A stretch of 64,000 bases of DNA from Acidobacteriota bacterium (GCA_016201275.1 JACQDB010000043.1:339-64338), one strand, 5' to 3'; positions 20,296 to 57,328 are shown, numbered from the stretch's first letter. Translations and numbers: made by a program. The notes: generated from the letters alone by a model not told the origin.

Positions 20296-20330
20296 ACGCA
20301 TTTCTCACAAGAGAAGTCTGCGCCTAACCA

Positions 20331-24595: not shown

Positions 24596-24603
24596 AAAAG
24601 ATT

Positions 24604-24673
24604 GGTTATTGGTTATTGGTTATTGGTTGTTGGTTACTCGATGGGTTTCGTCATACCAGTAACCAATAACCAG
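24604..24673. repeat. Tandem-heptamer hairpin: GGTTATT x4-5 arm pairing with agtaaccaataaccag arm
   Basis: ggttattggttattggttattggttgttggttact ... agtaaccaataaccag; fills the spacer between the stop of PQQ paralog 2 (24677) and the Fe-ADH start (24595). Confidence 0.6.
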
Positions 24674-24676
24674 CAC

Positions 24677-26248
24677 CTAATTCGCAGGTTTTACTGCGGC
24701 GGCGGGTGCGGCTTTATCTGCCAACGCGAAAAGTTGATTGCGATTCATCACGTACAAAGCGCCATTGGCAGGCACGGCGCTGCTGTACACCGAACTACCC
24801 ATGCTGATTTCGGCAAGTTGTTTTTTCTCTTTACCGGCTTGCAGAATCACCACGTCGCCGTCTTCATCGCCGAGATAAACTTTACCGTCCACAACCAACG
24901 GCGATCCCCACACAGCGGCCAGCATATCGTAAACCCACATGACTTTGCCGGTCTTGGCATCCAGACAATGCAAGAAGCCGCTGAAGTCCGCGTAATAAAT
25001 CAAGCCATCGGCAATCGCGCCAGTAGAAATCGAACGGCGAATCTTGTCGTAATGCCAGACCACGCCCGCTTGCGTGATGTCGCCGCGTTTGGTTGCATCT
25101 ATGCAGTAAAGATGGCCTATGCCTTCGCCGTGTTCGGGGTCCTGGCCGTTCGCCATATAAACTTTGTTATCCCAGATGACCGGTGTGCTGATGACTTCGT
25201 TGCGCGTCTTTGGCCACACCGAATCTTTCGGGTTGCTGTCAAACTCCCAAAGTTTTTTGCCGGTCAACGCTTCGTAGCCGCGAATCCAGCCGTCGCCTTC
25301 GCCCATCACCACCTGCACGACGCCGCCAATCGTGCCGACCGCCGGTGATGACCATTGCCCGTGCAGTATGCGGTCACCAACATTGTTGACTTCCCACACC
25401 AGCTTGCCATTCTTTTTGTTAATCGCGATCAAGTTCGGGGCTTTCGGCGAAGGAATGTTGACGTGACTTTCATCTTGGCCGTTCGAGGTATTGATGAACA
25501 GCAAATCGCCGTACATGACCGGCGAGCAGTTCGACATATTATGCGGTTGCGAGCCGACCTCTTCCATCATATCGAATTTCCAGATGATGTCGGGGTCAAA
25601 CTTGCCGGTCAGTTTTTCCTCTTTATAGGGCCCGTCGTTTTCATTATCGCGGAACCCTTGCGTATCCAGGCACATCACTTCGCAACGATTGGTGACGTAA
25701 TAAAGTTTGTCGCCTTCGACCAGTGGCGACGAGCAGACGCCTTGAAAAGGCCAGTCGTTGACGCGCCCCGCAGGCAGTTTATCGTTGACCTGTTGCCATA
25801 AAAATTCGCCGGTCGCTTCGCCAAAACACATCAACACGCCTTTGTCGCCGGTCTGCTTCGCATCACGCGGCGCTTCATTATTGGTGCCAACGTAAACCTG
25901 CCCACCGGCAACCACAGGATTGCCGTAACTTTGCGAACCGAGGGTGGCAACCCATTTGATGTTGATCTTTTTGTTCACGTCCCAAGTTACCGGCAAGCCT
26001 TTCATGTTGGAAGTCATGTTGCGGTCAGGCGTGCCGCCCCACATCGGCCAATCGCCAGAGCCGGGGTCTGAAGCCAGCACTTTGTTTCCGGGTAAACTGT
26101 TTCCCAGTTGACAAATTATCAGAAACACCAGCGCCAGCACAGTGAATTTCCAGTTTGACAACCCGCTGCTGAATAAGCTTTTTGCCATTTGCCATTTGCC
26201 GTTGGTCATCTGCCATTTGCCTTCGCGCCAAGCCCTTTGCCGTTTCAT
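24677..26248 (-). CDS. Secreted PQQ-repeat beta-propeller protein (paralog 2)
   Basis: ATGA start/stop overlap with upstream paralog at 26245-26248. An alternative start at 26188 (MAKSLFSS..., signal peptide) would leave the GCCATTT repeats non-coding. Eight PQQ-like blades. Confidence 0.65.
   Translation of the reverse strand: MKRQRAWREGKWQMTNGKWQMAKSLFSSGLSNWKFTVLALVFLIICQLGNSLPGNKVLASDPGSGDWPMWGGTPDRNMTSNMKGLPVTWDVNKKINIKWVATLGSQSYGNPVVAGGQVYVGTNNEAPRDAKQTGDKGVLMCFGEATGEFLWQQVNDKLPAGRVNDWPFQGVCSSPLVEGDKLYYVTNRCEVMCLDTQGFRDNENDGPYKEEKLTGKFDPDIIWKFDMMEEVGSQPHNMSNCSPVMYGDLLFINTSNGQDESHVNIPSPKAPNLIAINKKNGKLVWEVNNVGDRILHGQWSSPAVGTIGGVVQVVMGEGDGWIRGYEALTGKKLWEFDSNPKDSVWPKTRNEVISTPVIWDNKVYMANGQDPEHGEGIGHLYCIDATKRGDITQAGVVWHYDKIRRSISTGAIADGLIYYADFSGFLHCLDAKTGKVMWVYDMLAAVWGSPLVVDGKVYLGDEDGDVVILQAGKEKKQLAEISMGSSVYSSAVPANGALYVMNRNQLFALADKAAPAAAVKPAN
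26183..26222. repeat. Tandem heptamer GCCATTT array (x4, one degenerate)
   Basis: gccatttgccatttgccgttggtcatctgccatttgcc; each unit's reverse complement contains ATG. Confidence 0.5.
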
Positions 26249-34498: not shown

Positions 34499-36157
34499 TC
34501 AGCGCGGCGGCGGCGCAGGTGATGGCATAGATTGGGGAGGCGATTTTGGCGCAGCGTGTTCCGCGCCGTCGTTTTGATAAACATAGGTCTTCGGGCCGGT
34601 GGCGGCCTTCTGCGTCAACGCAATCAATTGCTGTGGGAAAATGCCAATCAACAAGACAAACAAAGCCGCTGTCGCCAACGCAATGCGGAGCGGCCACGAT
34701 TGCATGACGGGCTGCATTTCGGTCTCCGCTTCGATGTACATGGCGCGAATAAAGCGCAAATAATAATACAAAGAAACCGCGCTCATCAGGACGGCGAGTA
34801 TCGCCAGTCGCACCAGCCACGGGTTGCCGGTTTCGATAAGTCCGGCGAACAAATAAAACTTGCCAATGAATCCGGCGGTCGGCGGTATGCCGCCAAGCGA
34901 CAGCAGAAAAATCGTCATCATCACCGTCAACCACGGCGCTTTTTTCATCAAGCCGTTCAAGTCTTCCATGCGGTCGCCAATGATGCCGCGTCTTCGCAGC
35001 GCGATGATGCAACCGAAGACGCCCAGATTCATCAAGGTGTAAATGAACAAGTAAATCACGAAGCCGGTGTAGCCGGTTTGATTGCCAGCGATGATACCGA
35101 GCAAAGTGTAACCGGCGTGCGAGATGGACGAATAAGCAAGCAGGCGCTTGGTATTGGTCTGGGTCAAGGCCGCCAGATTTCCCCACACGATGGTGATTGC
35201 CGAAACCACACCCAGCAACACCGCCCAGCCGGGAAGAGCGGGAAGGTGGCTCGTTGCATTGCCTTCAAGCGTGCCGCGCAAATCGGGCAGGCCGTACAAA
35301 AAGATGCGCCCGAACATAGCGAAGCTTGCGGCTTTGACCGCGACCGACATGAACGCGGTGATCGAAGTTGGCGCGCCTTCGTAAGCGTCCGGTGCCCACA
35401 TATGGAACGGCACCGCCGCCACTTTGAAGAACATCCCTGCGGCCATCAAAATCATGGACATCAACACCAAGTAACGCATATCCACGGCCTGACCGAGCGG
35501 TTGATAATTCGCGCCGATGACCACCGGCAAAGCTTTGGCGATGTCTGCCAGATTGGTCGAACCGGTCATGCCATAGACCATCGAAATGCCGTACAGCAAA
35601 ACGCCGGAAGAAAACGCGCCGAGGAGAAAATATTTCATCGCCGCTTCATTCGATCTCTGGTCGCGGCGCAGATAGCCTACGAGTATGTAAACCGAAATCG
35701 CCATCAATTCGAGGGCGATAAACAGCGTCAACAAATCCACCCCTGAAGCCATAAACATCATGCCGACGACGGCGAAAAGAATCAGCGCATAATACTCGCC
35801 GCGCTGTTCGCCTTCTTCGTCTAGATATTTTATGGAAAGCAAAATGGCGAGGAGCGCGCCAATCAGAAACATCATCTTGAAGACCACGGCATAAGGGTCT
35901 ATGACGATCATGCCAAAGAAACCGGCTTTGGCGCTGCTGCCCATCCCCTTGTACACGAAGATGAGCGAGACCAGCGAGACCAGCAAGCCCACTATGCTCA
36001 ACCAGGCGACGAGGAATTTTTGTTGGCGCGGCAACAGCACATCTATTACCAGCGCGGCACAGGCAAACAGCAGCAATAGAACTTCGGGCATAATGAGTTC
36101 TTTGGTCTGCTGCAAGATGACGGAAAGATCAGGCGATGTTTGTAAGAATGCGAACAT
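34499..36157 (-). CDS. nuoN: NADH-quinone oxidoreductase subunit N
   Basis: 14-TM antiporter-like subunit, 'FHMWAPDAYEGAPT', 'LLAYSSISHAGY'; Pro-rich C-terminal tail. Confidence 0.85.
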   Translation of the reverse strand: MFAFLQTSPDLSVILQQTKELIMPEVLLLLFACAALVIDVLLPRQQKFLVAWLSIVGLLVSLVSLIFVYKGMGSSAKAGFFGMIVIDPYAVVFKMMFLIGALLAILLSIKYLDEEGEQRGEYYALILFAVVGMMFMASGVDLLTLFIALELMAISVYILVGYLRRDQRSNEAAMKYFLLGAFSSGVLLYGISMVYGMTGSTNLADIAKALPVVIGANYQPLGQAVDMRYLVLMSMILMAAGMFFKVAAVPFHMWAPDAYEGAPTSITAFMSVAVKAASFAMFGRIFLYGLPDLRGTLEGNATSHLPALPGWAVLLGVVSAITIVWGNLAALTQTNTKRLLAYSSISHAGYTLLGIIAGNQTGYTGFVIYLFIYTLMNLGVFGCIIALRRRGIIGDRMEDLNGLMKKAPWLTVMMTIFLLSLGGIPPTAGFIGKFYLFAGLIETGNPWLVRLAILAVLMSAVSLYYYLRFIRAMYIEAETEMQPVMQSWPLRIALATAALFVLLIGIFPQQLIALTQKAATGPKTYVYQNDGAEHAAPKSPPQSMPSPAPPPR

Positions 36158-36176
36158 AGTTTCTCTTGTTGATGAA

Positions 36177-36325
36177 CTTGTACGGGCGACCCTGCGGTGG
36201 TCGCCCCGGCTTTTGAATTTTGTAGTTTCAAAAGCTCATTGAAAACATTGATGCGATAAGATCGCACGCTTTGAAATCATTTTGAATTTTAATGAGGGAC
36301 GACCACCGCAGGGTCGCCCGTACAG
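36177..36325. repeat. ~29-bp inverted repeat (tgtacgggcgaccctgcggtggtcgcc / ggcgaccaccgcagggtcgcccgtaca) spanning the nuoN-nuoM spacer
   Basis: Arms at ~36177-36207 and ~36296-36325, ~90-nt loop. Confidence 0.55.
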
Positions 36326-36329
36326 TAAA

Positions 36330-38150
36330 TTACTTTGCCTGGCTCTCGACTTCCACAGGCGTAGGCTCACTGATTTTGCTTCCGGTCTTAGTGCTTTGCG
36401 GCATCAATTCGTTGGCAGACTTTTCTTCCGCCATCTTCGGTTCTTCGGGCAGCTTGAAATAATTGGGATCAATCTGCACGACCACCGCTTCGGTCTGCGG
36501 GTTGATGTACGACAGCAACGGTTTGGGATAGATGCCGATCCAGAAAATCAACACGATGAGCGGCGCAAACTGCCACGCTTCTCGCGCATTCAAATCGGGC
36601 AGCGTTTTATTTTTGTCGTTGGTGACGGCACCGAAAAAGACTCTTTGATAAAGCCACAACATATACGCAGCGCCCAAAATAATGCCTACGGTGGCCAGCG
36701 CGCCCCACGTCGCTTTGGCTTCAAACGCGCCTCGCAATACTAGAAACTCGCCGATGAAATTGTTCATCAAAGGCAAGCCCAGCGACGATAGCGTGACGAT
36801 TAAAAAGATTGTCGAGTAGATCGGCATGACCGAGGCCAGGCCGCCAAACTCGGCGATCTCGTAGGTGTGGCGGCGTTCGTAAATCAGACCGGCCAGCATA
36901 AACAGCGCCCCCGTAGAGATGCCATGATTAATCATCTGCATCACCGCGCCGTTGATGCCGTTCGGATTCAAGGCGAACAAACCCAGCATCACAAATCCCA
37001 GATGTGACACCGACGAATAGGCCACCAGTTTCTTAATATCTTTTTGCGCCATCGCCACCAGCGCGCCGTAAATGATGCCGATGATGGCCAACGTAATCAT
37101 CCAGAAACGCACTCGCGGATGCGTCGCCGCATCGGGAAATATCGGCAGCGAAAATCGCATGAAGCCATACGTTCCCATCTTCAGCAAGATGCCCGCGAGG
37201 ATGACCGAGCCTGCCGTGGGCGCGTCGTAGTGGGCGTCCGGCAACCACGTATGAAAGGGGAACATCGGCACTTTGATGGCGAACGACAAGGCAAAGCCTA
37301 CGAATAACCAGATGACTACATTGATACCGAAGACCGTTTTGATGTGCGGCCCGATAGCCGTCAAGGCGGCGATGTTGAACGACGAACGCACATAACTTGA
37401 TGGCAGCGATTTGTTGTCCACGTCTTTGCCATCCACGCGCCGCATAGCGTCTTCGACCAGCTTTCGCATGGCGCTGTTTTCCTGTCCGGTTTCATGATTG
37501 GTGGCGTATTGACGGGCGGTTTCCAGCACCAAACCTTTTTGCGATTTGACGACATCAGGAAAGATGAAGAAGAGTTTTAACACCGCCAAGAGCATCACCA
37601 CGGAACCGACCAAGGTGTAGAGGAAAAATTTAATCGCCGAATAGAGGCGATTTTTGCCGCCCCATATGCCGATCAAAAAGTACATAGGCACGAGCATCAC
37701 TTCCCAAAAGATGAAGAACAGGAAAAGGTCTGCCGAGGCAAACGCGCCAATCATGCCGGTCTGCAACAACAGCAGCATGATGTAGTATTCTTTTTCGCGG
37801 CCTTTGTCGCGGATGTACGACCAAGAGCAGACCGCCGCGATGACGCCAAGCAAAGTGGTCAGCATGATTAAAATCACCGACAAGCCATCAACCGCCACTT
37901 GATAACGCGTTCCGATGATCGGTATCCACTCGAAGTCTTCAATGAATTGCAAACCACCGAGCGCCCGGTCATAGCCCTTGATGCTGCTGCCGAATCCGGT
38001 AATGAGCGGAATCGAAACCACAAAGCACAGTCCCATCCAGAGATTGGCGAACCAGCGAATCGCATCGTTTTTGCTCTTGTTAAATAAGAGTAAGAGGATT
38101 GCCCCAAGCGCCGGCAACCACGTCACCCATGAAAGAATGCCTATCTTCAT
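36330..38150 (-). CDS. nuoM: NADH-quinone oxidoreductase subunit M, with ~70-aa hydrophilic insertion
   Basis: 'HTWLPDAHYDAPT', 'KKLVAYSSVSHLGFV'; 606 aa vs ~500 typical; insertion 'KSQKGLVLETARQYATNHETGQENSAMRKLVEDAMRRVDGKDVDNK'. Confidence 0.85.
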   Translation of the reverse strand: MKIGILSWVTWLPALGAILLLLFNKSKNDAIRWFANLWMGLCFVVSIPLITGFGSSIKGYDRALGGLQFIEDFEWIPIIGTRYQVAVDGLSVILIMLTTLLGVIAAVCSWSYIRDKGREKEYYIMLLLLQTGMIGAFASADLFLFFIFWEVMLVPMYFLIGIWGGKNRLYSAIKFFLYTLVGSVVMLLAVLKLFFIFPDVVKSQKGLVLETARQYATNHETGQENSAMRKLVEDAMRRVDGKDVDNKSLPSSYVRSSFNIAALTAIGPHIKTVFGINVVIWLFVGFALSFAIKVPMFPFHTWLPDAHYDAPTAGSVILAGILLKMGTYGFMRFSLPIFPDAATHPRVRFWMITLAIIGIIYGALVAMAQKDIKKLVAYSSVSHLGFVMLGLFALNPNGINGAVMQMINHGISTGALFMLAGLIYERRHTYEIAEFGGLASVMPIYSTIFLIVTLSSLGLPLMNNFIGEFLVLRGAFEAKATWGALATVGIILGAAYMLWLYQRVFFGAVTNDKNKTLPDLNAREAWQFAPLIVLIFWIGIYPKPLLSYINPQTEAVVVQIDPNYFKLPEEPKMAEEKSANELMPQSTKTGSKISEPTPVEVESQAK

Positions 38151-38280
38151 CGAAGTCTCCTAAGAAGCTAGTTTGTATTCAGAATAATTGCCACGCTTCA
38201 GCCTGATAGAATTTGAAAGACCGATATAGCAAGGGTTCGCACCATGACAGACATCTGACAATCTGCCTCGGAGGGGCAAA

Positions 38281-38446
38281 GGAGATTAGCCAGTGGTGCA
38301 GCCACTGGAAAAGAATCGCCCCTTAGAATTATTTAGCCCGGAAAGGGCGATAGAAAACCAGCTTTCATCTTTCATCCCGCGCCCCTTCAGGGCGCGATTG
38401 ATTACGAAGGCTTTCGTCCAGTGGCTGCACCACTGGCTAATCTCCA
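38281..38446. repeat. Perfect 28-bp inverted repeat ggagattagccagtggtgcagccactgg / ccagtggctgcaccactggctaatctcc in nuoM-nuoL spacer
   Basis: Arms 38281-38308 and 38419-38446; ~110-nt loop containing a second palindrome cgcgccccttcagggcgcg. Confidence 0.6.
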
Positions 38447-38577
38447 TCGCGCTTTCAGCGCGAACACAAAGCTCTATCTCTTTTCAAAGACCTTGGCTGA
38501 AAATTTCAAGTACCTAAAACGGCTCGAAAGATTAAAACGAAAATCAAACAGCAAAAACGGCGATAAGCAAAGCCACA

Positions 38578-40995
38578 TCACTTCGCCCCGAACAAGCCTT
38601 TGAGGGTCGCAGAGATCGCCGGATAAATGTAAAACGCCACAATGATAAACAAGCCCAGCGTAAAGACCAGCACATAGTTTTGCCAGAAGCCGGTTTGAAA
38701 AGTACGCAGCACCAGCGACCCGCCTTTGCTGATCCACCCCGTCGCGTTGACCAATAAATCAATCACGTATTTGTCCCACAGATTGCTCAGACGCGCCCAC
38801 AAACGGGTCAACGCGCCCGCACCGTTTACGCCGCCATCCACCACCGTCGCGTCCACCGCCCACAAAGCGTTGTTGACGACTTTACCTGCTGCTACGCCTT
38901 TTACGTCGAGCAAGTAATCCCAATACCACTTGTTGAAACTGAGTTTGTACAGCGGCTGCAATTTCGCGCCCCACGCTTTCGCCAGTCCGGGTTTATCTAA
39001 ATAAAAAACTTTTGCCAGATACATACCAAGCAAAGCGACGAGTACGGAAGCCATCATCAAAATAAGTTCGAGCATCTGGAACGGTTTGTGTTCGCCTTCT
39101 TCGTGCGTTGCTTGCGAGGTTGCTTGCGCTTCGCTGGCAGTAGATTCAGCAGCGTTGTGCGCTTCACTGGCAGTGGTTTGCGGCGTGCCATGCGCTTCGA
39201 CAGTGGCGGTCGTGGCGTGTTGCGGTGTGGCGTGAACTTTTTCAATCACCGGATCAAGCCAATGCTCGAAGGCACTGGCGTGCGGAATACCAAGCAGCCC
39301 TATGAAAAGCGAGAAAGCCGCCAGCACGATTAACGGAATCGTCATGCTCTTGGGCGATTCGTGCGGCTCAAAATGATGATGCGCGGCGGTGTGCGTAACA
39401 AAGGGATCGCTGGCGTCTTTCGCGCCGACGTGTTCACCTGGTTGATGATGCGGACGGTCGCCTGCCGAAGCGGTCACGGCGTCGTGCGGTTTCAAATCCT
39501 TATCGTAAGCGGCAGCGTGCGCTTCGTCGGCCTCGCCACCTGCGTGAACTTTGCGAAAGCGCTCTTCGCCCCAGAACGTCAAAGCCATCAAGCGCGTCAT
39601 GTAAAACGCCGTGATGCCAGCGGTGAACAAGCCGACAATCCACAAAATTTTCGCGCCGCCGAAGCGCGTTGTATCAAAGGTATTCCAGAGAATTTCATCT
39701 TTCGACCAGAAGCCTGCCCATAGGGGAATGCCGCAGATGGCTAGCCAGCCCATCAGCATGGTCTTGTAAGTCGTCGGCAGATATTTTTTCAAGCCGCCCA
39801 TGCGCGGCATCTCCTGTTCGTGGTGCATACCATGTATGACCGAACCGGAGCCGAGGAAAAGCAGAGCTTTGAAAAAAGCGTGGGTGAAGACGTGAAAGAT
39901 AGCGGCTACGAAAGCGCCTACGCCTGCGCCTAAAAACATAAAGCCGAGTTGCGAGACCGTCGAATAAGCGAGAACTTTTTTGATGTCGGTTTGCGTGATG
40001 CCTATGGTTGCGGCGATGAATGCCGTCAAACAACCGACCACCGCGACCACCATCATCATGGTCGTCGAGCGTTGAAAAAAGAAATTGGTGCGCGTCACCA
40101 TAAAGACGCCTGCGGTCACCATAGTCGCCGCGTGTATCAAGGCAGACACCGGCGTGGGGCCTGCCATAGCGTCCGGCAACCAGATGAATAAAGGAATCTG
40201 CGCGCTCTTGCCGGTCGCCCCGATGAACAAGCCCAGCGCAATCCAACTCATCAAACCGAACGCGCCCAGCGCTTCCGGCGGATAGGCTTTCGCCAGTGCC
40301 GCCAGATCATGAAACTGCAAAGTGCCGAACATAGCAAAGACGCCAAAGATGGCCAGGGCAAAGCCTAAATCGCCTATGCGGTTGACGACGAAAGCTTTTT
40401 TGGCGGCGTCGCCCGCTTCCTGTCGGTTGATGTAATAGCCGATCAGCAGGTAGGAACATAATCCCACGCCTTCCCAGCCGACGAACATAATCATGAAGTT
40501 CGATCCCATCACCAACAGCAGCATCATGAACATAAACAGATTCAGGTACGAGAAGAAGCGATAGAAGCCGGGGTCGCCGTGCATATAGCCGGTCGCGAAG
40601 ATGTGAATCAAAAAGCCTACGAAGGTGACGACGAACATCATGACCAGCGAGAGTTGGTCTATTTGATAGCTCCACTCGATATTGAAATTCGCCAGCTTGC
40701 CTTTGTCTGCGCCTTGCGTGAGATGAGCGCGTCCGCCAGGCATCCAGGTAAAGCTGAAGCCGCCGGGTTCTTTGCTTGTGATATAAGGCTTGTCTGCGTT
40801 GTTGGGATTGAAACTGGTTTTGTATTCCACGAATGCGCCTATGGTAATCAACAGCGACAGCCCGATGACACCGCAGGCAATCCACGACACGACCTTTTCG
40901 CTGAGGTGCAGTTTTTTGCCCAAGAGAAAATTGATAAGGAAACCCAACAGTGGAAAGACAGGAATCAGCCAGACGAGTTTTAACATAATAGTCAT
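38578..40995 (-). CDS. nuoL: NADH-quinone oxidoreductase subunit L, with ~150-aa His/Ala/Thr-rich insertion
   Basis: 'WLPDAMAGPTPVSALIHAATMVTAG'; 805 aa vs ~610-650 typical; insertion region 'EADEAHAAAYDKDLKPHD...HHHFEPHESPK...HATPQHATTATVEAHGTPQ'. Confidence 0.85.
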   Translation of the reverse strand: MTIMLKLVWLIPVFPLLGFLINFLLGKKLHLSEKVVSWIACGVIGLSLLITIGAFVEYKTSFNPNNADKPYITSKEPGGFSFTWMPGGRAHLTQGADKGKLANFNIEWSYQIDQLSLVMMFVVTFVGFLIHIFATGYMHGDPGFYRFFSYLNLFMFMMLLLVMGSNFMIMFVGWEGVGLCSYLLIGYYINRQEAGDAAKKAFVVNRIGDLGFALAIFGVFAMFGTLQFHDLAALAKAYPPEALGAFGLMSWIALGLFIGATGKSAQIPLFIWLPDAMAGPTPVSALIHAATMVTAGVFMVTRTNFFFQRSTTMMMVVAVVGCLTAFIAATIGITQTDIKKVLAYSTVSQLGFMFLGAGVGAFVAAIFHVFTHAFFKALLFLGSGSVIHGMHHEQEMPRMGGLKKYLPTTYKTMLMGWLAICGIPLWAGFWSKDEILWNTFDTTRFGGAKILWIVGLFTAGITAFYMTRLMALTFWGEERFRKVHAGGEADEAHAAAYDKDLKPHDAVTASAGDRPHHQPGEHVGAKDASDPFVTHTAAHHHFEPHESPKSMTIPLIVLAAFSLFIGLLGIPHASAFEHWLDPVIEKVHATPQHATTATVEAHGTPQTTASEAHNAAESTASEAQATSQATHEEGEHKPFQMLELILMMASVLVALLGMYLAKVFYLDKPGLAKAWGAKLQPLYKLSFNKWYWDYLLDVKGVAAGKVVNNALWAVDATVVDGGVNGAGALTRLWARLSNLWDKYVIDLLVNATGWISKGGSLVLRTFQTGFWQNYVLVFTLGLFIIVAFYIYPAISATLKGLFGAK

Positions 40996-41095
40996 TAGTC
41001 CTTAGTCCTTAGTCCCTAGTCCTTAGTCTTCAGTTAAAGGTTTCGGCTCGTGAAAGCATTTAACTAAGGACTAGGGACTAAGGACTAAGGACTAA
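40996..41095. repeat. Intercistronic tandem-heptamer hairpin (AGTCCTT x5 / AAGGACT x4) between nuoK stop and nuoL start
   Basis: tagtccttagtccttagtccctagtccttagtcttcag ... ctaaggactagggactaaggactaaggactaa. The left arm abuts the nuoL start codon (40993-40995) and the right arm ends 1 nt from the nuoK stop. Confidence 0.7.
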
Positions 41096-41096
41096 A

Positions 41097-41579
41097 CTAA
41101 AATTTCAGTAAATCAATTTCGTCAATCGCTATGGTTTCGCGGTTGCGGAACAGCGCGATGACGATGCCCAAGCCGACGGCGGCTTCTGCAGCGGCGACAA
41201 CAATGATGAAAATGGTAAAGACCGGCCCGGCCAACGGGTTGACGGTCATACCGGCGCTTTTGAATGCTGTATTGAACGCTTCCTGATTGATTTGAAAGTA
41301 GCGCGAGAACGCGATCAGGTTCAGATTAACCGCGTTCAAAATTAATTCGATGGACATGAAAATGATGATGATGTTGCGGCGCGATAACACTCCGGCGACG
41401 CCTACGACGAAGAGCAGAAAACTCAACATCATGAAATTGACCAGCGTCGGCTCGAAGCGTTCCAGATTCGGCCAGACATACTTGTACGAAACGAAGCCAA
41501 CCGCACCTAAGAAAAGTACGGTGAAGATAAGGTTCGGGAGGTTGTCGCGTGAAAAGAATTTTTTAAGTCCAGAGGGCAT
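41097..41579 (-). CDS. nuoK: NADH-quinone oxidoreductase subunit K with N-terminal extra TM extension
   Basis: Canonical NuoK core from '[16 protein letters not shown]...[15 protein letters not shown]'; upstream in-frame ATG at 41579 has a GAGGAG SD at 9 nt, supporting the 160-aa form with an additional helix '[16 protein letters not shown]'. Confidence 0.8.
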
Positions 41580-41617
41580 TTATCCTTACTCCTCAATGGG
41601 TGAAAACCGAACTGCTG

Positions 41618-41688
41618 AGTTTGGCGTGCCGCCTGCAAGCGGTTGCTGCGGCTTTCAGGAAAACCGCCTGTAGGCGGCACGCCAAACT
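41618..41688. repeat. Inverted repeat gtttggcgtgccgcc / ggcggcacgccaaac in nuoK-nuoJ spacer
   Basis: 15-bp perfect core, arms extend imperfectly to ~25 bp. Confidence 0.55.
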
Positions 41689-41749: not shown

Positions 41750-42349
41750 TTATTCGCTGGGTTCGTAAAGCTTCTCTTGTTTGGTGCCGCGAGCCAACAA
41801 CACCGCGCCCACCATTGCTACCAGCAACAACACCGAAGCGATTTCAAACGGCAAGGCGGCTTCTTTGTAAAGCGATTGGCCTACCTCTTGAGTGTCGGTG
41901 GAAATCTGCGAGCCAGCGCCTGACTTGGTGGATTCCGCTGGCGCTTCTTTGCTTTGCGCGGCGGCCTCGGAAGGCTGCGGGCGAAATGCCGGTTGCGCCG
42001 AATTCATGGCAAAGAAAAACGACACCGCCAATAGCAAAGTAAGCATCACCGCTGGCCACATCTGCCCGGTGTAGAGTTTTACTTTCGCCTCTTCTTCGGC
42101 GCGGGTCTGCACCAACATGATGACAAACAGAAACAGCACCATCACGCCGCCTACATAAACCAGTATCTGCACACCAGCGACAAATTCGGCGCGCAGCAGG
42201 ATGAACAACAAGGCGATGTTGACCAGCGTTGAAATCAGAAAGAGAGCCGAATGCACGGCCAATCGCGCCGACACCACCAACACGCCCATGATGAGCGTTG
42301 AAAATGCCAGCACATAAAACAGCACTGCTTCCCAACCGTGTAATTGCAT
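41750..42349 (-). CDS. nuoJ: NADH-quinone oxidoreductase subunit J
   Basis: 5-TM ND6-like; 'MQLHGWEAVLFYVLA...'; hydrophilic A/S/E-rich segment before last helix. Confidence 0.8.
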   Translation of the reverse strand: MQLHGWEAVLFYVLAFSTLIMGVLVVSARLAVHSALFLISTLVNIALLFILLRAEFVAGVQILVYVGGVMVLFLFVIMLVQTRAEEEAKVKLYTGQMWPAVMLTLLLAVSFFFAMNSAQPAFRPQPSEAAAQSKEAPAESTKSGAGSQISTDTQEVGQSLYKEAALPFEIASVLLLVAMVGAVLLARGTKQEKLYEPSE

Positions 42350-42350
42350 C

Positions 42351-42452
42351 GTAGTCCTTAATCCTTAGTCCTTAGTCCTTAGTTCCCTTTCTTTGATATT
42401 CAGGTCGGTGGCAGATTTCTCTCACCGACTAATGACCAGGGACTAAGGACTA
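42351..42452. repeat. Intercistronic tandem-heptamer hairpin between nuoI stop and nuoJ start
   Basis: gtagtccttaatccttagtccttagtccttagttccc ... gactaatgaccagggactaaggactat; the right arm overlaps the nuoI TAG; nested 7-bp stem gtcggtg/caccgac inside the loop. Confidence 0.7.
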
Positions 42453-42995
42453 TTTCGTGTACTTGACGTAGCTGATGCCTTTTTCGAGCATCTCGCGGTC
42501 CCAACGAAAGCCTGAGCGATGATAGACGGCAAGCTCGAAACCTTGAGTCAATTCTAGGCAATCCGTTGGGCAGGCTTCCGAACAGAGATTGCAAAACATA
42601 CAACGCGAGGTGTCGAAGGTAAACGTCGTCAGCACTTTTTTCTTGTTCACCTTTGCGCCATCGCGCACTTCGCGGCGAATCGAACCGACATCTATGCAGT
42701 CCACCGGACAGGCCAGCGCGCACAGGTCGCAAGCGATGCACAAGGTGCCGCCGGTTTCCGGGTCAAGGTTCAAACGCGGCGCGCCTCGGTAACGCTCCGA
42801 CACTCGCGCCGCCTCAAGCGGGTACTGCTCGGTGTAGAGCGCTTGATGCGGATTGCCGCCATCGCGTTTTTCATACAGAGCGCGAATATTATATTTGAAG
42901 GTTACGGCCAGACCCTTGAAGAGGTCTAAAAGTAACAGCCGTTTGATAATGCCGGAGAAACTGCGCTTTCTTCCGGCTACGTTTATTGCTGGCAT
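42450..42995 (-). CDS. nuoI: NADH-quinone oxidoreductase subunit I (2x[4Fe-4S] ferredoxin)
   Basis: 'CIACDLCALACPVDC' and 'CMFCNLCSEACPTDC'. Confidence 0.9.
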   Translation of the reverse strand: MPAINVAGRKRSFSGIIKRLLLLDLFKGLAVTFKYNIRALYEKRDGGNPHQALYTEQYPLEAARVSERYRGAPRLNLDPETGGTLCIACDLCALACPVDCIDVGSIRREVRDGAKVNKKKVLTTFTFDTSRCMFCNLCSEACPTDCLELTQGFELAVYHRSGFRWDREMLEKGISYVKYTK

Positions 42996-43077
42996 AATTC
43001 ACCTACTTACAAAAAACCAAACTTGATAGCGCAAAAAACCATTGGTTGATGCGAATCGTTAATCACAGAATCCGTTT

Positions 43078-43245
43078 TTGCGGCTCTGCCGCTTTGAGAT
43101 GCGGAAAGGCTCGGACTTTCCGGCAAGGCGACAGGAACGCTTCAACGGCTACGCCGCCAATTGGGGCGCAGCCCCGAAACCTTTCAACGAATCCTCCGGC
43201 GGGGCAAAGCCACCGCCGCACATCAAAGCGGCAAAGCCGCCTGAC
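43078..43245. repeat. Diverged third copy of the palindromic MITE-like element (see 55700 and 57131)
   Basis: gccgctttgagatgcggaaaggc ... ccgcacatcaaagcggcaaagccgc mirrors the core gccgctttgaggtgcggagaggc ... ccgcacctcaaagcggcatagccgc of the other copies. Lies in the 345-bp nuoI-nuoH spacer. Confidence 0.5.
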
Positions 43246-43340
43246 GCTTTGACACAGAACCCCTAACAGGAAGGCGTTGGTTTATCAATCGGAAATCGCC
43301 GCTTAACCCTGATTCAAGAATGCGGCGCTCAATCTTAAAC

Positions 43341-44705
43341 TTATTCCGCTGCTTCGGCGTTTTCCATCTTTTTCAAACGCTCGCGGCGCAACTTGAATTG
43401 TAACTGGCGCTGCTCGTCGAGATTGAAATCATTGGAGCGCCGATTGATTGCCGCAAGCAGCGCCCAGACCATTGGAACCGTAATGAGAAAACCTGTAGCT
43501 ACGAAATAGATAACGCCTGCCCACTGGGTTGGCACTAATCGCCCACTCACATCTTTCATGAAATTAAATCTCAAGAAAAATTTTAGAAAGTCCGGGAGTG
43601 AGGCTTTTGTACTAGGCAATGCAAGCACATACCAGATAGCGGTCATCACGATGTTTGCGAGTCCCGCCGGAATCATCCACTTCCAGCCAATCTCCATCAA
43701 CTGGTCGTAGCGATAACGCGGCCACGTCCAGCGTATCCACATGAAAGCGTAAATCAACACCATCACCTTCGTGGCGAAAATAACGATGCTCAAAAAGACG
43801 AACAGATTGGGCGAAGACTTTTCGATAAGGCTCAGGCCGGGAAACGACCAGCCGCCCAGATAAAGTGTCACGGCAATCGAAGAGGTGACAATCATCGCGG
43901 TGTATTCCGCCATAAAAAACAGCGCCCAGCGAAAGCCCGAATACTCGGTGTGATAACCGGCGACGAGTTCCGATTCGGCTTCCGGCAAATCAAAAGGTGC
44001 GCGATTGGTTTCGCCTAACGCGCAGATGACGTAAACCAGAAAGCCCAGCGGTTGAAAGAAGAAATACCATACGCCATCGGCGCGTTGCGCTTCGACAATG
44101 CCATTCATCGAAAGCGTGCGCGCAAACATCAAGGCTCCGATAATCGAAAGCCCCATGCCGATTTCATAACTCAACATCTGCGCCGACGAACGCAATGCGC
44201 CAAGCAGTGAATACTTCGAGTTGGAAGACCAACCGGCCAACACCAACCCCAACACCGCGACCGACGAAACCGCCAGAATAAACAGCAGGCCAATGTTGAC
44301 GTTGGCAATCGTTCCCCAGCCTGCGCCCCACGGCACCACCGCAAGAACGACCAGAGCGGCGACCACGGCGATAATCGGCGCGAGTTGAAAAATCGCTTTG
44401 TCGGCTTTAATCGGGATGATGTCTTCTTTGAGCAGCAGTTTCAAACCATCGGCAGCCGGTTGCAAAAGTCCCCAAGGGCCTACGCGCATAGGGCCAAGCC
44501 GCGCCTGCATGAAGGCCGACACCTTGCGCTCCAGATAAACCAGATAGGCAACCAGGGTCAAGATGATGAACAGCACCACGATGATTTGAATGAGCGGCCA
44601 GACGATGTACTCCGACCAAAAGACATTCGGCTGTTTCTCTTTGGTGAGATATTCTCGCACCCATTGCGGCGCAACCAGGAGTAATGTCGAAAGTATAGCT
44701 GTCAT
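43341..44705 (-). CDS. nuoH: NADH-quinone oxidoreductase subunit H, with ~80-aa C-terminal extension
   Basis: 'EAESELVAGYHTEYSG' signature; 454 aa vs ~330-350 typical; extra C-terminal TM + basic coiled tail. Confidence 0.9.
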   Translation of the reverse strand: MTAILSTLLLVAPQWVREYLTKEKQPNVFWSEYIVWPLIQIIVVLFIILTLVAYLVYLERKVSAFMQARLGPMRVGPWGLLQPAADGLKLLLKEDIIPIKADKAIFQLAPIIAVVAALVVLAVVPWGAGWGTIANVNIGLLFILAVSSVAVLGLVLAGWSSNSKYSLLGALRSSAQMLSYEIGMGLSIIGALMFARTLSMNGIVEAQRADGVWYFFFQPLGFLVYVICALGETNRAPFDLPEAESELVAGYHTEYSGFRWALFFMAEYTAMIVTSSIAVTLYLGGWSFPGLSLIEKSSPNLFVFLSIVIFATKVMVLIYAFMWIRWTWPRYRYDQLMEIGWKWMIPAGLANIVMTAIWYVLALPSTKASLPDFLKFFLRFNFMKDVSGRLVPTQWAGVIYFVATGFLITVPMVWALLAAINRRSNDFNLDEQRQLQFKLRRERLKKMENAEAAE

Positions 44706-44717: not shown

Positions 44718-44832
44718 GCTGAGGACTGAGGGCTAAGGACTGAGTAAGAAATTAGACGCAAGCTATCAGGTTTGCGATTTGCCAATCATTGCAGACAAGT
44801 TTTTCACTCAGTCCTCAGTCCTCAGTCCTTTA
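44718..44832. repeat. Intercistronic hairpin, GACTGAG/CTCAGTC heptamer variant, between nuoD stop and nuoH start
   Basis: gctgaggactgagggctaaggactgagtaag ... cactcagtcctcagtcctcagtccttta; right arm includes the nuoD TAA. Confidence 0.65.
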
Positions 44833-45963
44833 TCTATCAACTTCGCCTAAAACGATGTCAATCGTTCCGATAATTGCCACCACATCGGCAACCAGATGGC
44901 CTATGGACATTTTCTTCAACGCCTGTAGATTAATGTATGAAGGCGGACGGATACGCATACGATAGGGTTTGCCGGTTCCGTCGCTCACCAGGTAAACGCC
45001 GATTTCGCCTTTGGGCGCTTCTATCGAATGATAGATTTCGCCGACCGGCGGCTTGATAATCTTCGGCACTTTCGCCATCACCGGCCCTTCCGGCAAACCA
45101 TCGAGCGCCTGTTCGATGATACTGAGCGATTGCCGCATCTCTGCCATGCGACAAAGATAGCGGTCATAAGTGTCGCCGTTTTCGCCCACCGGAATTTCAA
45201 AATCGAAATCGGCATAAGCCGCATACGGTTGCGCTTTGCGTATGTCGTATTTGACGCCCGAACCGCGCAGTACGGGGCCGGTCAAACTCAAATTGATAGC
45301 GTCTTCGGCAGACAACACGCCTATGCCAACGGTGCGGCTCAACCAGATACGGTTGCTGTTTAACAGCGTTTCATATTCATCAATGCGAGTGGGCATCATC
45401 TTCAAAAATTCTTTGACGCGATCAACGAATTCCGGGTAGGCGTCCCATTGCAGACCGCCGATGCGGAAAGCGTGTGCGGTGAGCCGTGCGCCGATGAAGT
45501 CTTCAAAGATTTTTAAGATCTCTTCGCGTTCGCGGAAACAGTAGAGCAAGACCGTCACCGCGCCTATATCAATGGCGTGCGTACCAAGCCACAACAGATG
45601 CGAAGCGATGCGCTGCAATTCAGTCAGGGCAACGCGCAGATATTGCGCGCGACGCGGCACTTCGACCTGCAATAATTTTTCTACGCCCTCGACGTAACAC
45701 AAATCGTTGGAGACGGCGGCGACATAATCGAGCCGATCCCAATAAGGCGTGATCATTTGATAGGTGTCGTGTTCGGCAATCTTTTCCACACCGCGATGCA
45801 GATAGCCGATGTCACAATCGAGGTCGGTTACGGTTTCGCCGTCGAGTTTTAAGATGACGCGCAACACGCCGTGCGTCGAAGGATGCTGCGGCCCCATGTT
45901 CAGCACCATCTCTTCGGCGTCGAGCAGCGTTTCGTGCGGTTTAATCGCTTCCTGGCTTTGCAT
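44830..45963 (-). CDS. nuoD: NADH-quinone oxidoreductase subunit D (49-kDa)
   Basis: '[14 protein letters not shown]', 'GYLHRGVEK', C-terminal 'GEVDR'. Confidence 0.9.
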
Positions 45964-46068: not shown

Positions 46069-47106
46069 CTATCTGCGTTGGGCGTATTTCACATCAATCA
46101 AACTGGTATCATAATCCACTTCGCGATAGTCAATGTGTTTATCCGTCCACTCGTTGTCGCGGTATTCAATCGGATACTCTTTGCGAAGCGGATAGCCCGG
46201 CCAATCTTCGGGCAACAGTATGCGCCGCAAATCCGGGTGGCCGTCAAATTTTACGCCGAACATATCAAAGACTTCGCGCTCCATCCAATTCGCGCCTGCC
46301 CAAATTGAGGTGACGCTGGGCGCGGCTTCGCCTTCAGCAATCGCCGTCTTGACGCGCAGGCGTTGATTTTTGGATACCGAATATAAATTGGCCACGATGT
46401 CAAATTCCGCGCCAGTTTTGTCTGGCCAGTGCAGTGCCGTCAAATCGGCGCACATGGTAAACGCGCCGTCTTCGTCATCGTGCAGGAAGCGGCACAGTTT
46501 CAAATACGCATCTTTGTTGACGCGAATGATGCGTTGTCCGAAGGTCTTGACGGTTTCGGTGATGGCGTCGGGGAATTTGGCTTTGAGTTTATCAATGAAG
46601 GGATCGTCTTTAATCTCTTCGGTGACGGTTGGCCCTTTTTTAGCAGGCGGCGCGGGTTTGGCAGCGCCCGCCGTAGCGGCTGATGCAGGCGCTTTGGGCG
46701 GCGCGGCGGCTTTCGGCGGCGCAGGCTTTGCGGCAGCTTCCGGCTTGGCTGCGGCATCAGCGGTGGGCGCTTTTGCTTCAGCGCTCGGCGTTGCTTCTGC
46801 TTTTGCTTCAGCGCTCGGTGCGGCGACTTTTGCAGGGACTTCGGGTGTTGCCGGTGCTGTCGGTTTTTCGGTTGCGGCTACAGTCGAAGTTTCGGCCAGA
46901 CTATCGGCAGTCGTATTGCCTGGGCTGGCGCTGGCTTCGGGTTGAGTTTCGCTTGGTGTTTCAGTGGGTAAAGTAGGTGCGGCGACGTTGGCCGGTTGAG
47001 CGGTTGAAGCAACCTCGGCCTCAACCGTTTTCGCGTCCGTCGGTTCAGCATTCTCCGGGACTTCCTGCGTATCTTTGCTTTCGTCTGACATAATGGCAAC
47101 CTGCAT
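46069..47106 (-). CDS. nuoC: NADH-quinone oxidoreductase subunit C (30-kDa) with ~170-aa N-terminal Ala/Pro/Thr/Glu-rich low-complexity extension
   Basis: C-terminal half 'GANWMEREVFDMFGVKFDGHPDLRRILLPEDWPGYPLRKEYP' is canonical; N-terminal half is compositionally biased (PTAPATPEVPAKVAAPSAEAKAEATPSAEAKAP...). Confidence 0.85.
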   Translation of the reverse strand: MQVAIMSDESKDTQEVPENAEPTDAKTVEAEVASTAQPANVAAPTLPTETPSETQPEASASPGNTTADSLAETSTVAATEKPTAPATPEVPAKVAAPSAEAKAEATPSAEAKAPTADAAAKPEAAAKPAPPKAAAPPKAPASAATAGAAKPAPPAKKGPTVTEEIKDDPFIDKLKAKFPDAITETVKTFGQRIIRVNKDAYLKLCRFLHDDEDGAFTMCADLTALHWPDKTGAEFDIVANLYSVSKNQRLRVKTAIAEGEAAPSVTSIWAGANWMEREVFDMFGVKFDGHPDLRRILLPEDWPGYPLRKEYPIEYRDNEWTDKHIDYREVDYDTSLIDVKYAQRR

Positions 47107-47578
47107 ACTCGCGCACCTTGAAACCTCTAGGGCGCGGAAAAATAGTTACGGTATTGATGACTACTCGCTATTTGAAAAGCTGCTGGAAAATAACTCTGCT
47201 TCTTGACGCAGATGCTTTTAGCATAGGCTTGAAAGCCTTGTCAATCTCAGCCCCAAAACTAGGGCGATTGCAAAGTTGGGTAAGAACGAAAAATTCAGCA
47301 GACCAGTGCGGGCGTACCTCCGTGTGCGCCCCTTGATGAATCCGCGAATCATTGCAGTAGTCGCCCATACCAGTTGGCACTTGATTTCAGCCACCATCAT
47401 CAGGCAGACAGCCGAGCCATGCCGGTCTCGCTATAAAAAGGCAGGCACACAAACTGGCAGTGTAAAGGAGCAAAGGATGAGACGGGTTCGCCGAATCACA
47501 GCCATAGGCGGGTGCGGCGAATCCGCTCAATTGGTGGTCTATACAGATAGACGCTACGCCTCGCTTGATCTTCAAGCC

Positions 47579-48964
47579 TCAACAGCGGCATGACTTTTCG
47601 GCAACCTGCATGGCCTGTTTGATCGAATCGCCGAGCGAGATGCCGCGCAGATAATTGCCGCTTAAAAAAAGCCCTGTGCGGTTTTGCAAAGCCGCTTCCA
47701 CTGCCGTGATGCGCGCCGCATGACCCAAAATATATTGCGGCAGCGCACGCTGGTGGCGCGTGATCGGCAAGCGCCGTGGCTCGCCCGTGAGTCCTAAAAC
47801 TTTGTGTAAATCCTGATGCACGGTGGCGATCAATTCGTCATCGCTCAAGGTGATGGCTTCGCGGTCGGTTGCGCCGCCTATGTAATTGGTCAAACACACC
47901 CAGCCTGCGGGCGCACGTTCAGGAAACAGCGACGAATTCCACACCGAGCCGAGGGTTCGCAAACCGGCGCTACGCGGCGCTAGAAAACCGAAGCCGTCGA
48001 GCGGTCTTGCTAACTGTTCCTGACGATAAGCGAGCGGCACTGAAGCCAAACTCGCATACGGTATATCGGCAATCAAGGAAGCAATCTCCGGCGCGCACTC
48101 CTTGAGCAACAGCGCCGCCGCATCAGCCGGTGTCGCCACAATCAAGGTCGCCGCCGCCACCGTGTGCCGTGTGCCCTGATGCTCGAACACCACTTCAAAA
48201 CGCGCCGACGAATTCGCTTCGTTGTTGTCGCGTATGCTTGTCACCTGAGCTTCGCGCAAAAAATTCTCGCCTAAACTTTTCGCCAGCCTGCCAGGTAAGG
48301 CTTCGAGTCCGCGCCGAAACGAACATAAACGATAGGGACGCAAAGAACGCTTGGGCGTCGCTTGGCCGTTGCGCCCTGCGCGCATCGCTCGCAAGGCCCC
48401 GCGCAGTATGCTGCCGCCTGCAATTTCAAACTCCGGCAACTTCGCAAAGCTTGCCTGCACGCTCAATTGTTCGACATCACCGGCATAGACTCCCGAAACA
48501 AATGGGCTGACCAGGCGCTCCAATACCTGCCGCCCAAGTCTGCGTTCGATGAACGATGCGACGCTCTCTTCGCCTGCTTCACGGCGCGCTTTGATGAACG
48601 GTTCGCCGAGCAGACGAAACTTTGCGCCGATTGAAAGCAGTTTGGTTTTGATCAACGCCGGTGGACTCATCGGCACGGCGTGCAGCGCGCCGTCCACGTA
48701 AACATAAGCGGGCGCTGTCGCGTCGCCCGTCACCAATTCATCCTGCAAGCCGAGTTCTTCCAGCAAGTCTAAAAATTCATGCGTGCCGCGCAGACTGTTG
48801 GGGCCGCGTTCAATCAGAAAGCCATCGGCATCGAGGCTTTTGATGACGCCGCCTGCGTGCTTGCTGTTTTCGAGGAGCAGAATAGTTCGCCCCGCTTGTT
48901 GCAGATGACTGGCCGTGACCAATCCCGCTATGCCTGCGCCGATGATGATGGAATGAAGCGCCAT
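47579..48964 (-). CDS. hemY: FAD-dependent protoporphyrinogen/coproporphyrinogen oxidase (HemY/PPOX family)
   Basis: 'IIIGAGIAGLVTASHL...GGVIKS' N-terminal FAD motif; ~460 aa; adjacent to hemN. Confidence 0.7.
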   Translation of the reverse strand: MALHSIIIGAGIAGLVTASHLQQAGRTILLLENSKHAGGVIKSLDADGFLIERGPNSLRGTHEFLDLLEELGLQDELVTGDATAPAYVYVDGALHAVPMSPPALIKTKLLSIGAKFRLLGEPFIKARREAGEESVASFIERRLGRQVLERLVSPFVSGVYAGDVEQLSVQASFAKLPEFEIAGGSILRGALRAMRAGRNGQATPKRSLRPYRLCSFRRGLEALPGRLAKSLGENFLREAQVTSIRDNNEANSSARFEVVFEHQGTRHTVAAATLIVATPADAAALLLKECAPEIASLIADIPYASLASVPLAYRQEQLARPLDGFGFLAPRSAGLRTLGSVWNSSLFPERAPAGWVCLTNYIGGATDREAITLSDDELIATVHQDLHKVLGLTGEPRRLPITRHQRALPQYILGHAARITAVEAALQNRTGLFLSGNYLRGISLGDSIKQAMQVAEKSCRC

Positions 48965-55651: not shown

Positions 55652-55699
55652 TGAGTTACTCAGCGTCTTTCGGAGTCTTCACTCATTTTGATTTGTAAC

Positions 55700-55950
55700 A
55701 ACCCAGCCAGTGCTTGCGGCTATGCCGCTTTGAGGTGCGGAGAGGCTATGCCTTTCCGTAAACGGCGCTCCCCACTCTCGCGGCTGCGCCGCCTGTGGGC
55801 TTCTGCCGCCAAGCTTTTCTGAGGCGCAGCCTCCGGTGCGGCGCAGCCGCGAAAAAGGAGAGCCAACCGAACGGAGAGTCACAGACTCTCCGCACCTCAA
55901 AGCGGCATAGCCGCACAGCATTCAACTCTCACAACAAGGCTGGGTAGTTA
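55700..55950. repeat. Palindromic MITE-like element, copy 1 (~250 bp), between tctA and tctC
   Basis: Termini acccagccagtgcttgcggc ... ggctgggtagttact; internal inverted cores gccgctttgaggtgcggagag / ctctccgcacctcaaagcggc and the palindrome ggagagtcacagactctcc. Confidence 0.65.
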
Positions 55951-55977
55951 CTTTGCCTTTTTACTTTTGCCTTACTT

Positions 55978-57120: not shown

Positions 57121-57130
57121 ATAAGAGGTA

Positions 57131-57328
57131 ACTACCCAGTCAGTGCTTGCGGCGGTGCCGCTATGATGTGCGGATAGGCTAAACCTTTCCGTAAGCTACG
57201 TCTCCCAACTCTCGCGGCTGCGCCGCGAAGAAAGAGCGCCAGTTCACCGGAGAGTCGCAGACTCTCCGCACCTCAAAGCGGCACCGCCGCACAGAATTCA
57301 ACCCTCACAAAAAGGCTGGGTAGTTACT
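57131..57328. repeat. Palindromic MITE-like element, copy 2 (~195 bp), immediately upstream of tctC
   Basis: Same termini and cores as copy 1 (actacccagtcagtgcttgcggc ... cggagagtcgcagactctccgcacctcaaagcggcaccgccgcacag ... ggctgggtagttact); lacks ~55 bp present in copy 1. Confidence 0.65.

Follow-up and report, generated by a model that had tools for sequence, protein, structure and literature searches.

The long inverted repeats in four spacers of a complex I (nuo) operon from an Acidobacteriota bacterium, those between nuoN and nuoM (N/M), nuoM and nuoL (M/L), nuoK and nuoJ (K/J) and nuoI and nuoH (I/H), are, judging from sequence comparison, very probably copies of at least three to four families of small non-coding palindromic elements. 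These families resemble repetitive extragenic palindromic (REP) sequences and their dimers (REPINs) or MITEs (miniature inverted-repeat transposable elements), and would be scattered through the intergenic DNA of this Blastocatellia-like lineage of Acidobacteriota. The window, which here means the whole 64,000-nt stretch analysed (GCA_016201275.1, JACQDB010000043.1:339-64338), carries the minus-strand operon nuoC-D-H-I-J-K-L-M-N, in which all nine gene identities were confirmed with Pfam (Table 1). For each of the four long nuo repeats, relatives were present at non-orthologous sites in the window, in related contigs or in a metagenome-assembled genome (MAG), JANMSG01. The initial annotation had offered two explanations, systematic segmentation or stabilisation of a polycistronic mRNA and repeated insertion of palindromic elements into spacers. 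Insertion gained support, since all four repeats belong to repeat families and the specific elements were not found where relatives have the corresponding nuo spacers. Segmentation or stabilisation was not supported by the comparison, in which the arms were missing from the relatives' orthologous spacers and the long stem was almost invariant among copies.

The long inverted repeats are real and far above chance. Exact inverted 14-mers no more than 300 nt apart occurred at nine loci of the window, compared with a mean of 0.05 in 20 shuffles. The N/M arms (36179-36207 and 36296-36324) were 29 nt long, 97% complementary and 88 nt apart, and the M/L arms (38276-38309 and 38417-38450) were 34 nt long, 94% complementary and 107 nt apart, with a perfect core of 29 nt (38281-38309 and 38417-38445). 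The K/J arms (41618-41644 and 41662-41688) were 27 nt long and 93% complementary. These measurements bore out the arms of about 29 bp first described for N/M and the perfect 28-bp repeat with a loop of about 110 nt described for M/L; the K/J repeat lay where it had been placed, with arms longer than the 15 nt originally quoted. A fourth long repeat was found in I/H (43080-43104 and 43216-43240; 25 nt, 88%), and heptamer-array hairpins occupied the L/K, J/I, H/D and D/C junctions. Spacers were folded in the mRNA sense and compared with dinucleotide shuffles in two runs, which gave z-scores of -13.6 and -14.9 for N/M, -7.5 and -9.0 for M/L, -4.9 and -5.2 for K/J, and -3.7 and -3.6 for I/H. At all eight nuo junctions of the window z was -3.6 or lower. 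No tRNA or tmRNA genes were found in the window.

Six related nuo loci on metagenomic or MAG contigs (L001-L006), with NuoM 78-87% identical to that of the window, were used for comparison; after a 100% identical database entry, the next relatives of the window NuoM are annotated as Blastocatellia. Gene order was the same in these loci and the spacers were different. The M/L spacer measured 67, 67, 73, 73, 135 and 148 nt in relatives versus 427 nt in the window, N/M 57-234 versus 172 nt, and I/H 51-183 versus 345 nt. Conservation in M/L was limited to the 24-35 nt that adjoin the start codon of nuoM, including an AGGAGA ribosome-binding site, and the specific elements of the window were absent from the orthologous spacers of the six loci. 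Fold z-scores in relatives were 0.4, 0.2, 0.5, -0.9 and -1.1 for M/L, near zero for I/H, and weak for N/M (-1.0, -3.1, -1.3, 0.4 and -3.0). The statement that all eight junctions are structured therefore held for this genome and failed in the relatives, which had zero to four structured junctions of up to eight, indicating a trait of this genome and not of the clade. The K/L junction was the only one at which structure was kept by position while sequence was replaced; a strong hairpin was present in all six genomes that include the junction (z from -4.4 to -10.6), with a different sequence each time.

The core of the M/L element consisted of two units, each resembling the two-hairpin RNA motif Acido-Lenti-1, in divergent inverted orientation with two small inner hairpins, GCCCGGAAAGGGC and CGCGCCCCTTCAGGGCGCG, between them. 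The left and right units each held one arm of the perfect 29-bp repeat, every arm being itself a small hairpin (CCAGTGG-TGCAG-CCACTGG), and the outer TTTCAAA...GGCTGAA arms (approximately 38196-38225 and 38476-38510) were degenerate. The only open reading frames (ORFs) in the 427-nt spacer were short, overlapped the palindrome arms and looked spurious. When the pattern TTAGCCAGTGGNNNNNCCACTGG was scanned against 185,579 species-representative genomes, 23 stretches were returned, 17 of them from a single Acidobacteriota MAG (JANMSG01, SOY_29_metabat_494). This MAG is a relative of the window genome, with one common gene 80% identical at the protein level. The remaining six stretches were single matches in unrelated taxa, and five of these matched the first hairpin only and look like chance. 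The sixth (L024), from a Bacteroidota-labelled bin of the same study (SOY_31_metabat_225), contained a full M/L-family element at 6615-6845; a mis-binned acidobacterial contig is more likely here than horizontal spread.

Copies of the M/L family were found on at least 17 contigs of JANMSG01, a fragmented MAG. All of these loci were intergenic and were neighboured by ordinary genes (Lon, RNase HII, PrmA, peptidases, ABC transporters) in co-directional, reverse and divergent contexts (++, -- and -+). Several copies lay at contig ends, which is expected since such repeats break MAG assemblies. Several were inverted pairs about 130 nt apart, with the geometry of the window M/L element, and an assembly artefact was rejected since the same geometry recurred in independent contigs. 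Ten copies could be aligned over about 260 nt, with arms 90-100% identical and interiors about 70% identical, in a modular layout of small hairpin, arm, two inner hairpins, arm and small hairpin. The family in JANMSG01 comprised doublets plus one singlet; in a single unit (L020), the first hairpin and linker made up a 37-nt perfect palindrome. Both halves of each copy together yielded 29 two-hairpin units, of which 27 were aligned and used to build a covariance model, R1. In the window this model detected the two M/L units only, and it detected no unit in the nuo loci of the six relatives. The second hairpin co-varied among the 27 units (CG in 13, GC in 12), because it has two types, A and B, one for each element end. 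The long stem was almost invariant among the copies and did not co-vary. The motif GTAGGAG was present in three of the ten aligned copies (L013, L008 and L021), and the window M/L copy had CAAAGGAG at that place.

Marks of mobility were present in several copies. The best-preserved M/L-family copies ended in GTAAC.ACTCAGCC and GGCTGAGT.GTTAC, and exact 8-bp direct repeats flanked two copies (TTTGCTTT in L011 and AAAGAAAA in L021). The I/H family had three mutually alignable copies in the window, the I/H element itself and two intact elements outside nuo at 55695-55951 and 57128-57327. Its halves were hairpin-linker-hairpin units in divergent orientation, as in M/L. Both intact copies carried GTAAC(A/T)ACCCAG(C/T)C at each end, and the termini of the M/L-family copy L011 were of the same kind; the two families are treated here as one superfamily. 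The GTAACNACYCAGYC termini lay at 55695/55951, 57128/57327 and L011 5964/6222, whereas chance would give 0.12 matches in the window. The flanks matched at six of eight positions around 55695-55951 and at five of eight around 57128-57327; other copies were unclear, and the flanks are AT-rich. The elements have several traits of MITEs, being 200-330 nt long, without coding capacity, multi-copy (at least 17) and intergenic, with terminal inverted repeats in some copies. The termini of the nuo M/L and I/H copies were degenerate, and the I/H copy therefore looks older. Since intact termini and duplications are lacking in these copies, we infer insertion into nuo from family membership and empty orthologous sites, and not from a clean pair of filled and empty sites.

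The N/M and K/J elements belonged to other families. In N/M, each arm was an 8-bp hairpin (GGGCGACC-CTGCGGT-GGTCGCCC) inside a unit of about 31 nt, and the two arms flanked an AT-rich spacer. The element began 5-6 nt past the nuoM stop codon, and the ribosome-binding region of nuoN lay outside it. The unit was found at five loci in four genomes (the window, L001, L002 and the JANMSG01 MAG) as singlets and one doublet. It was single in the orthologous M/N spacer of L001, had a modified loop in L002, and was single at L015 in JANMSG01. The K/J element was located 61 nt past the nuoJ stop codon and 38 nt ahead of the nuoK start codon, and each of its arms contained a small CCGCC...GGCGG hairpin. 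K/J arms (AGTTTGGCGTGCCGCC...) were found at three loci in two genomes, including the outer arms of a large composite palindrome in the window (Table 1) and a 72-nt palindrome at a non-orthologous site, L001 8413-8484.

Structures of this strength also occur beyond nuo. Of the nine exact-repeat loci, five lay outside the operon (4715-4766, 20330-20363, 55715-55851, 57148-57290 and 59132-59422), and among the 23 non-nuo spacers that measure 40 nt or more, 8 were as strongly structured as the nuo spacers. Heptamer-array hairpins were also observed outside nuo at 2398-2474 (TTAGTCA/TTAGTCC) and, with a different heptamer (ATTGGTT), at 24601-24681, and are therefore genome-wide too.

Several observations weigh against reading the nuo repeats purely as inserted elements. 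Structured spacers were more frequent in nuo (8/8) than among the other co-directional spacers of the window (7/14; hypergeometric p of about 0.02, calculated post hoc), and the N/M unit occupied the same site in three lineages; together these leave room for some selected role. The nuo M/L and I/H copies had neither intact termini nor duplications. No transposase or REP-associated tyrosine transposase (RAYT) was found in ten ORFs beside copies, in ten small ORFs of the window, or, for the 74 ORFs at the 17 loci, among the 25 commonest of 122 Pfam families. Copy numbers within the source genome rest on the 64-kb window, and a metagenome scan for the N/M unit gave three matches in GC-rich, coding-like DNA that missed the full palindrome and were treated as chance.

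That a hairpin is kept at each nuo junction to segment or protect the mRNA, drawn from whatever palindromic repeats are available, is nevertheless an improbable explanation. It fits the nuo excess just described, the shared N/M site, the strong hairpin, each time unrelated in sequence, that K/L carries in all six genomes, and the ribosome-binding segments left free by the hairpins. In its broader form the complex I operon of the clade would be selected for a stable junction hairpin, with mobile palindromes and heptamer arrays as its shifting source, so that structure is kept by position and sequence replaced; K/L in the six genomes and the eight structured junctions here fit this view, which we regard as unlikely too. 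However, among the relatives the difference was weak, a z of -4 or lower being found for 9 of the 34 spacers within nuo and for 6 of the 49 elsewhere, and M/L, I/H and mostly N/M were unstructured there. M/L-family elements also lay in the promoter regions of divergent genes and next to genes that have no relation to nuo. Moreover, complex I subunits are by textbook knowledge needed in equal amounts, so that differential stabilisation would bring no obvious benefit.

The resemblance to Acido-Lenti-1 (RF01687), which Rfam lists as a small RNA (sRNA), raised another alternative, in which the units within M/L would be independent trans-acting sRNA genes. No Rfam match was obtained on the whole window at the gathering threshold. 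At a relaxed threshold, 38418-38462 matched RF01687 with 29.7 bits (E 4e-5; gathering score 37), and four JANMSG01 units scored 22.2-23.8 bits, so that no unit reached the 37-bit cut-off. The other Rfam matches at E of 1 or less were to generic long-hairpin families (plant miRNA precursors, WsnRNA46 and Ysr155), scored far under their cut-offs and were rejected. The full RF01687 model (positions 1-46) aligned to the M/L unit, with 7 of 8 pairs in the first hairpin, 5 of 5 in the second and the linker CUAAUCUCC, and comparison with the published seed alignment showed that the design of two hairpins and a GCUA-type linker is present in the unit. This match and the co-variation of the second hairpin speak for sRNA genes. 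However, the co-variation separates the two element ends and does not represent many independent changes, and the units are inverted pairs in a 200-330-nt palindrome that in some copies carries terminal repeats together with flanking duplications. Neither promoter-like nor terminator-like signals bracketed the units, and the paper that described the motif assigned it no function and showed arrays of many copies, both tandem and alternating (PMC2864571, supplementary files 1 and 183). We therefore regard sRNA genes as very improbable. It is extremely unlikely that the hairpins divide nuo transcription as intrinsic terminators or attenuators. The hairpins are strong, contain GC and lie in a transcribed region, and one weak terminator-like site was flagged in the N/M loop (36267-36251, sense strand). 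However, none of the long inverted repeats was flagged as terminator-like in the mRNA sense; no U-tract followed the stems, whose tails were CAAGUUC, UUUGCCCC and CUCAGCAG, and the flagged sites inside spacers were small inner stems only, the second being 36199-36211 on the plus strand. Termination within a nine-gene operon for one complex would also be harmful.

On the preferred reading, dispersed palindromic elements, the copies would have spread by transposition, those of the M/L and I/H families through a DDE-type transposase that makes 8-bp duplications and the N/M unit through a REP-like mechanism. They would have inserted into the nuo spacers and then persisted, the surviving copies sparing the stop codon and the ribosome-binding segment. 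The nuo spacers are at least 50 nt long even when empty, and many other junctions of the window are shorter than 25 nt or overlapping; elements may have persisted in nuo because its spacers are roomy and insertion between stop codon and ribosome-binding segment is tolerated. No promoter-like site was found inside the nuo spacers, and promoter-like sites were fewer than in shuffles. Given this and the lack of a U-tract, the elements are probably transcribed together with nuo, and in the nuo mRNA they would probably fold into stems of 27-34 bp. By analogy to REP, ERIC and Correia elements, such RNA stems could hinder 3'-exonucleases or provide RNase III with cleavage sites. An incidental or partly selected effect on nuo mRNA is plausible; on the preferred reading it would be a by-product and not the reason for the presence of the elements.

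For annotation, an operon-specific story of RNA processing would give way to a simpler one, in which several REP-like and MITE-like families occupy unusually roomy nuo spacers, and the case illustrates that palindromic repeats can be mistaken for regulatory RNAs. If the elements are co-transcribed, their perfect stems of 28-45 bp in an essential respiratory operon would offer a natural test of hairpin effects on mRNA decay in Acidobacteriota.

Other features were observed around the repeats. In co-directional contexts, six of seven M/L-family copies were oriented like the nuo copy relative to transcription, with the long TTTCAA...GGCTGAGT end upstream (L009, L010, L021, L023, L024 and window M/L, against L017), a sample too small for significance. 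The region after the orthologous gene with 80% protein identity (window 3474-4577; L027 4407-5648) carried repeats in both genomes, an M/L-family element at L027 5649-5802 and, instead, a heptamer run, a GTTGAG palindrome and a single N/M unit at window 4578-4941. Because the repeats differ, there is no clean empty site there, and the arrangement suggests repeat hot spots. MITE-like elements were often directly bordered by runs like AAAGGCAAA or TTTGCCTTT and by heptamer-like arrays, for example (GGCAAAC)n (window 4596-4622 and 55952-55985; L027 5650-5696; right flanks of L009, L010, L011 and L021); these runs and arrays may be a favoured target or a related class of repeats. Two copies of another palindromic family, with arms GTTGAGCAGCGGTCTGTGAGCGC and GTTGAGAGGCGGTCTGTGACC, each with its own complement, lay at 4715-4767 and 57358-57409, in intergenic regions where other repeats are found too. 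A loopless 25-nt palindrome (20325-20374, 92% complementary) between the convergent genes at 17059-20295 (+) and 20505-21476 (-) is possibly a bidirectional terminator.

The first gene of the operon was nuoC, whose ORF (46069-47578) was extended at the N-terminus by about 190 residues that match no Pfam family. Upstream of it in the window there was no nuoA, B, E, F or G, and the next gene (47579-48964) encoded a flavin amine oxidase; in the relatives, PqqD-like ORFs and tiny ORFs lay upstream of the operon instead.

Table 1. Positions of the nuo genes, the palindromic elements and the K/L hairpins (window coordinates unless a related locus is named).
Feature	Position	Strand	Details
NuoN	34499-36157	-	Pfam
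NuoM	36330-38150	-	Pfam
NuoL	38578-40995	-	Pfam
NuoK	41097-41579	-	Pfam
NuoJ	41750-42349	-	Pfam
NuoI	42450-42995	-	Pfam
NuoH	43341-44705	-	Pfam
NuoD	44830-45963	-	Pfam
NuoC	46069-47106	-	Pfam
N/M element	36176-36327		inverted doublet of 31-nt REP-like hairpin GTACGGGCGACC-CTGCGGT-GGTCGCCC
Single N/M unit	4848-4877		GTACAGGCAACC-ACCGCAG-GGTTGCCCGTAT; unrelated intergenic region
M/L composite palindromic element	38190-38515		outer limits approximate (read from sequence and fold)
M/L left unit	38257-38310	-	first hairpin CCAGTGG-CTGCA-CCACTGG, linker CTAATCTCC, second hairpin GCCCCTCCGAGGC; R1 67.1 bits
M/L right unit	38416-38469	+	first hairpin, linker, second hairpin GCGCTTTCAGCGC; R1 74.2 bits
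K/J palindromic element	41618-41688		arms AGTTTGGCGTGCCGCCTGCAAGCGGTT and complement, 17 nt apart
Large composite palindrome	59168-59400		outer arms GGTTTGGCGTACCGC... / ...GCGGTACTCCAAACT related to K/J arms
I/H element	43059-43282		diverged copy of the 55695-55951 / 57128-57327 family; termini degenerate
Intact MITE-like element, outside nuo	55695-55951		termini GTAACAACCCAGCC, GGCTGGGTAGTTAC; 45-nt arms; flanks TTTGATTT / TTTGCCTT
Second intact MITE-like element, outside nuo	57128-57327		termini GTAACTACCCAGTC, GGCTGGGTAGTTAC
K/L hairpin, window	40996-41096		TTAGTCC heptamers
K/L hairpin, L002	7482-7626		GGAGTCT heptamers
K/L hairpin, L003	7664-7752		perfect 24-bp stem
K/L hairpin, L005	7365-7462		GC-rich stem
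K/L hairpin, L006	7311-7407

Comparison with known systems placed the elements among several kinds. IS66-family insertion sequences make 8-bp target duplications. Their terminal repeats start with GTAAGCG or GTAACCG (PMC12888890), and the intact copies here start with GTAAC. However, the agreement is limited to the first five bases and no IS66-type transposase was found in the DNA examined, so that an IS66-like source of the termini is only a lead.

The original description of Acido-Lenti-1 assigned it no function (Weinberg et al. 2010, PMC2864571). The seed has 89 members; multiple copies of the motif are present in Lentisphaera araneosa and in Koribacter versatilis (PMC2864571, supplementary files 1, 183 and 61) and in soil metagenomes, with tandem and alternating-orientation clusters (PMC2864571, supplementary file 183). 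It shares with the M/L unit an 8-bp hairpin, GCUAA with a linker of about 12 nt, and a 5-bp hairpin with a UUC(G) loop. In contrast to the motif, the first hairpin of the M/L unit has 7 pairs and a 5-nt loop, the score is under the threshold, and the unit is half of a larger palindromic element, whereas Rfam lists the motif as a candidate sRNA whose function is not known. Because the unit scores below membership, it is only a distant relative of Acido-Lenti-1. It is conceivable, though unlikely, that the orphan motif itself is the terminal module of a family of MITE-like elements. The present work gives a plausible identity to this sub-threshold relative.

REP sequences and bacterial interspersed mosaic elements of enterobacteria and the REP dimers or REPINs of Pseudomonas are imperfect palindromes of 20-40 nt (Di Nocera et al. 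2013, PMC3733652; Bertels & Rainey 2011, PMC3116915). They lie outside genes, in many cases near the 3' end of the gene upstream, and are co-transcribed. Head-to-head dimers have spacers of 20-100 bp and fold into one large stem-loop (PMC3733652, PMC3337134), and REP units carry a GTAG or CGTC tag at one end (PMC3733652). The N/M unit is likewise a short imperfect palindrome of about 31 nt (GTACGGGCGACC-CTGCGGT-GGTCGCCC(GTAC)) that occurs singly and as an inverted doublet (88-nt spacer) forming one long hairpin, and it is extragenic and near the 3' end of the upstream gene. However, it starts with GTAC and has no GTAG or CGTC tag, no RAYT gene was present among the ORFs examined beside copies and in the window, and it is known at five loci in four genomes as opposed to hundreds of copies per genome. 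Some M/L-family copies also have terminal repeats and flanking duplications, which REPINs lack.

The ERIC or IRU elements of enterobacteria and the Correia or NEMIS elements of Neisseria are bacterial MITEs that lie in operon spacers, are often co-transcribed and form long RNA hairpins. RNase III can cleave these hairpins, and they can also influence the decay of mRNA. The elements described here have no sequence relationship to them; they differ in host (Acidobacteriota), in the modular build of several small hairpins and a two-hairpin unit in inverted pairs, in GTAAC... termini with an apparent 8-bp duplication, and in that no transposase was found at any locus examined. They resemble MITEs, as surveyed in prokaryotes (PMC11602168), in being non-coding palindromes of 100-330 nt with terminal inverted repeats, multi-copy, intergenic, and variable in presence and absence among relatives. 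We regard them as new families, in a little-studied phylum, of a type of element that is already known.

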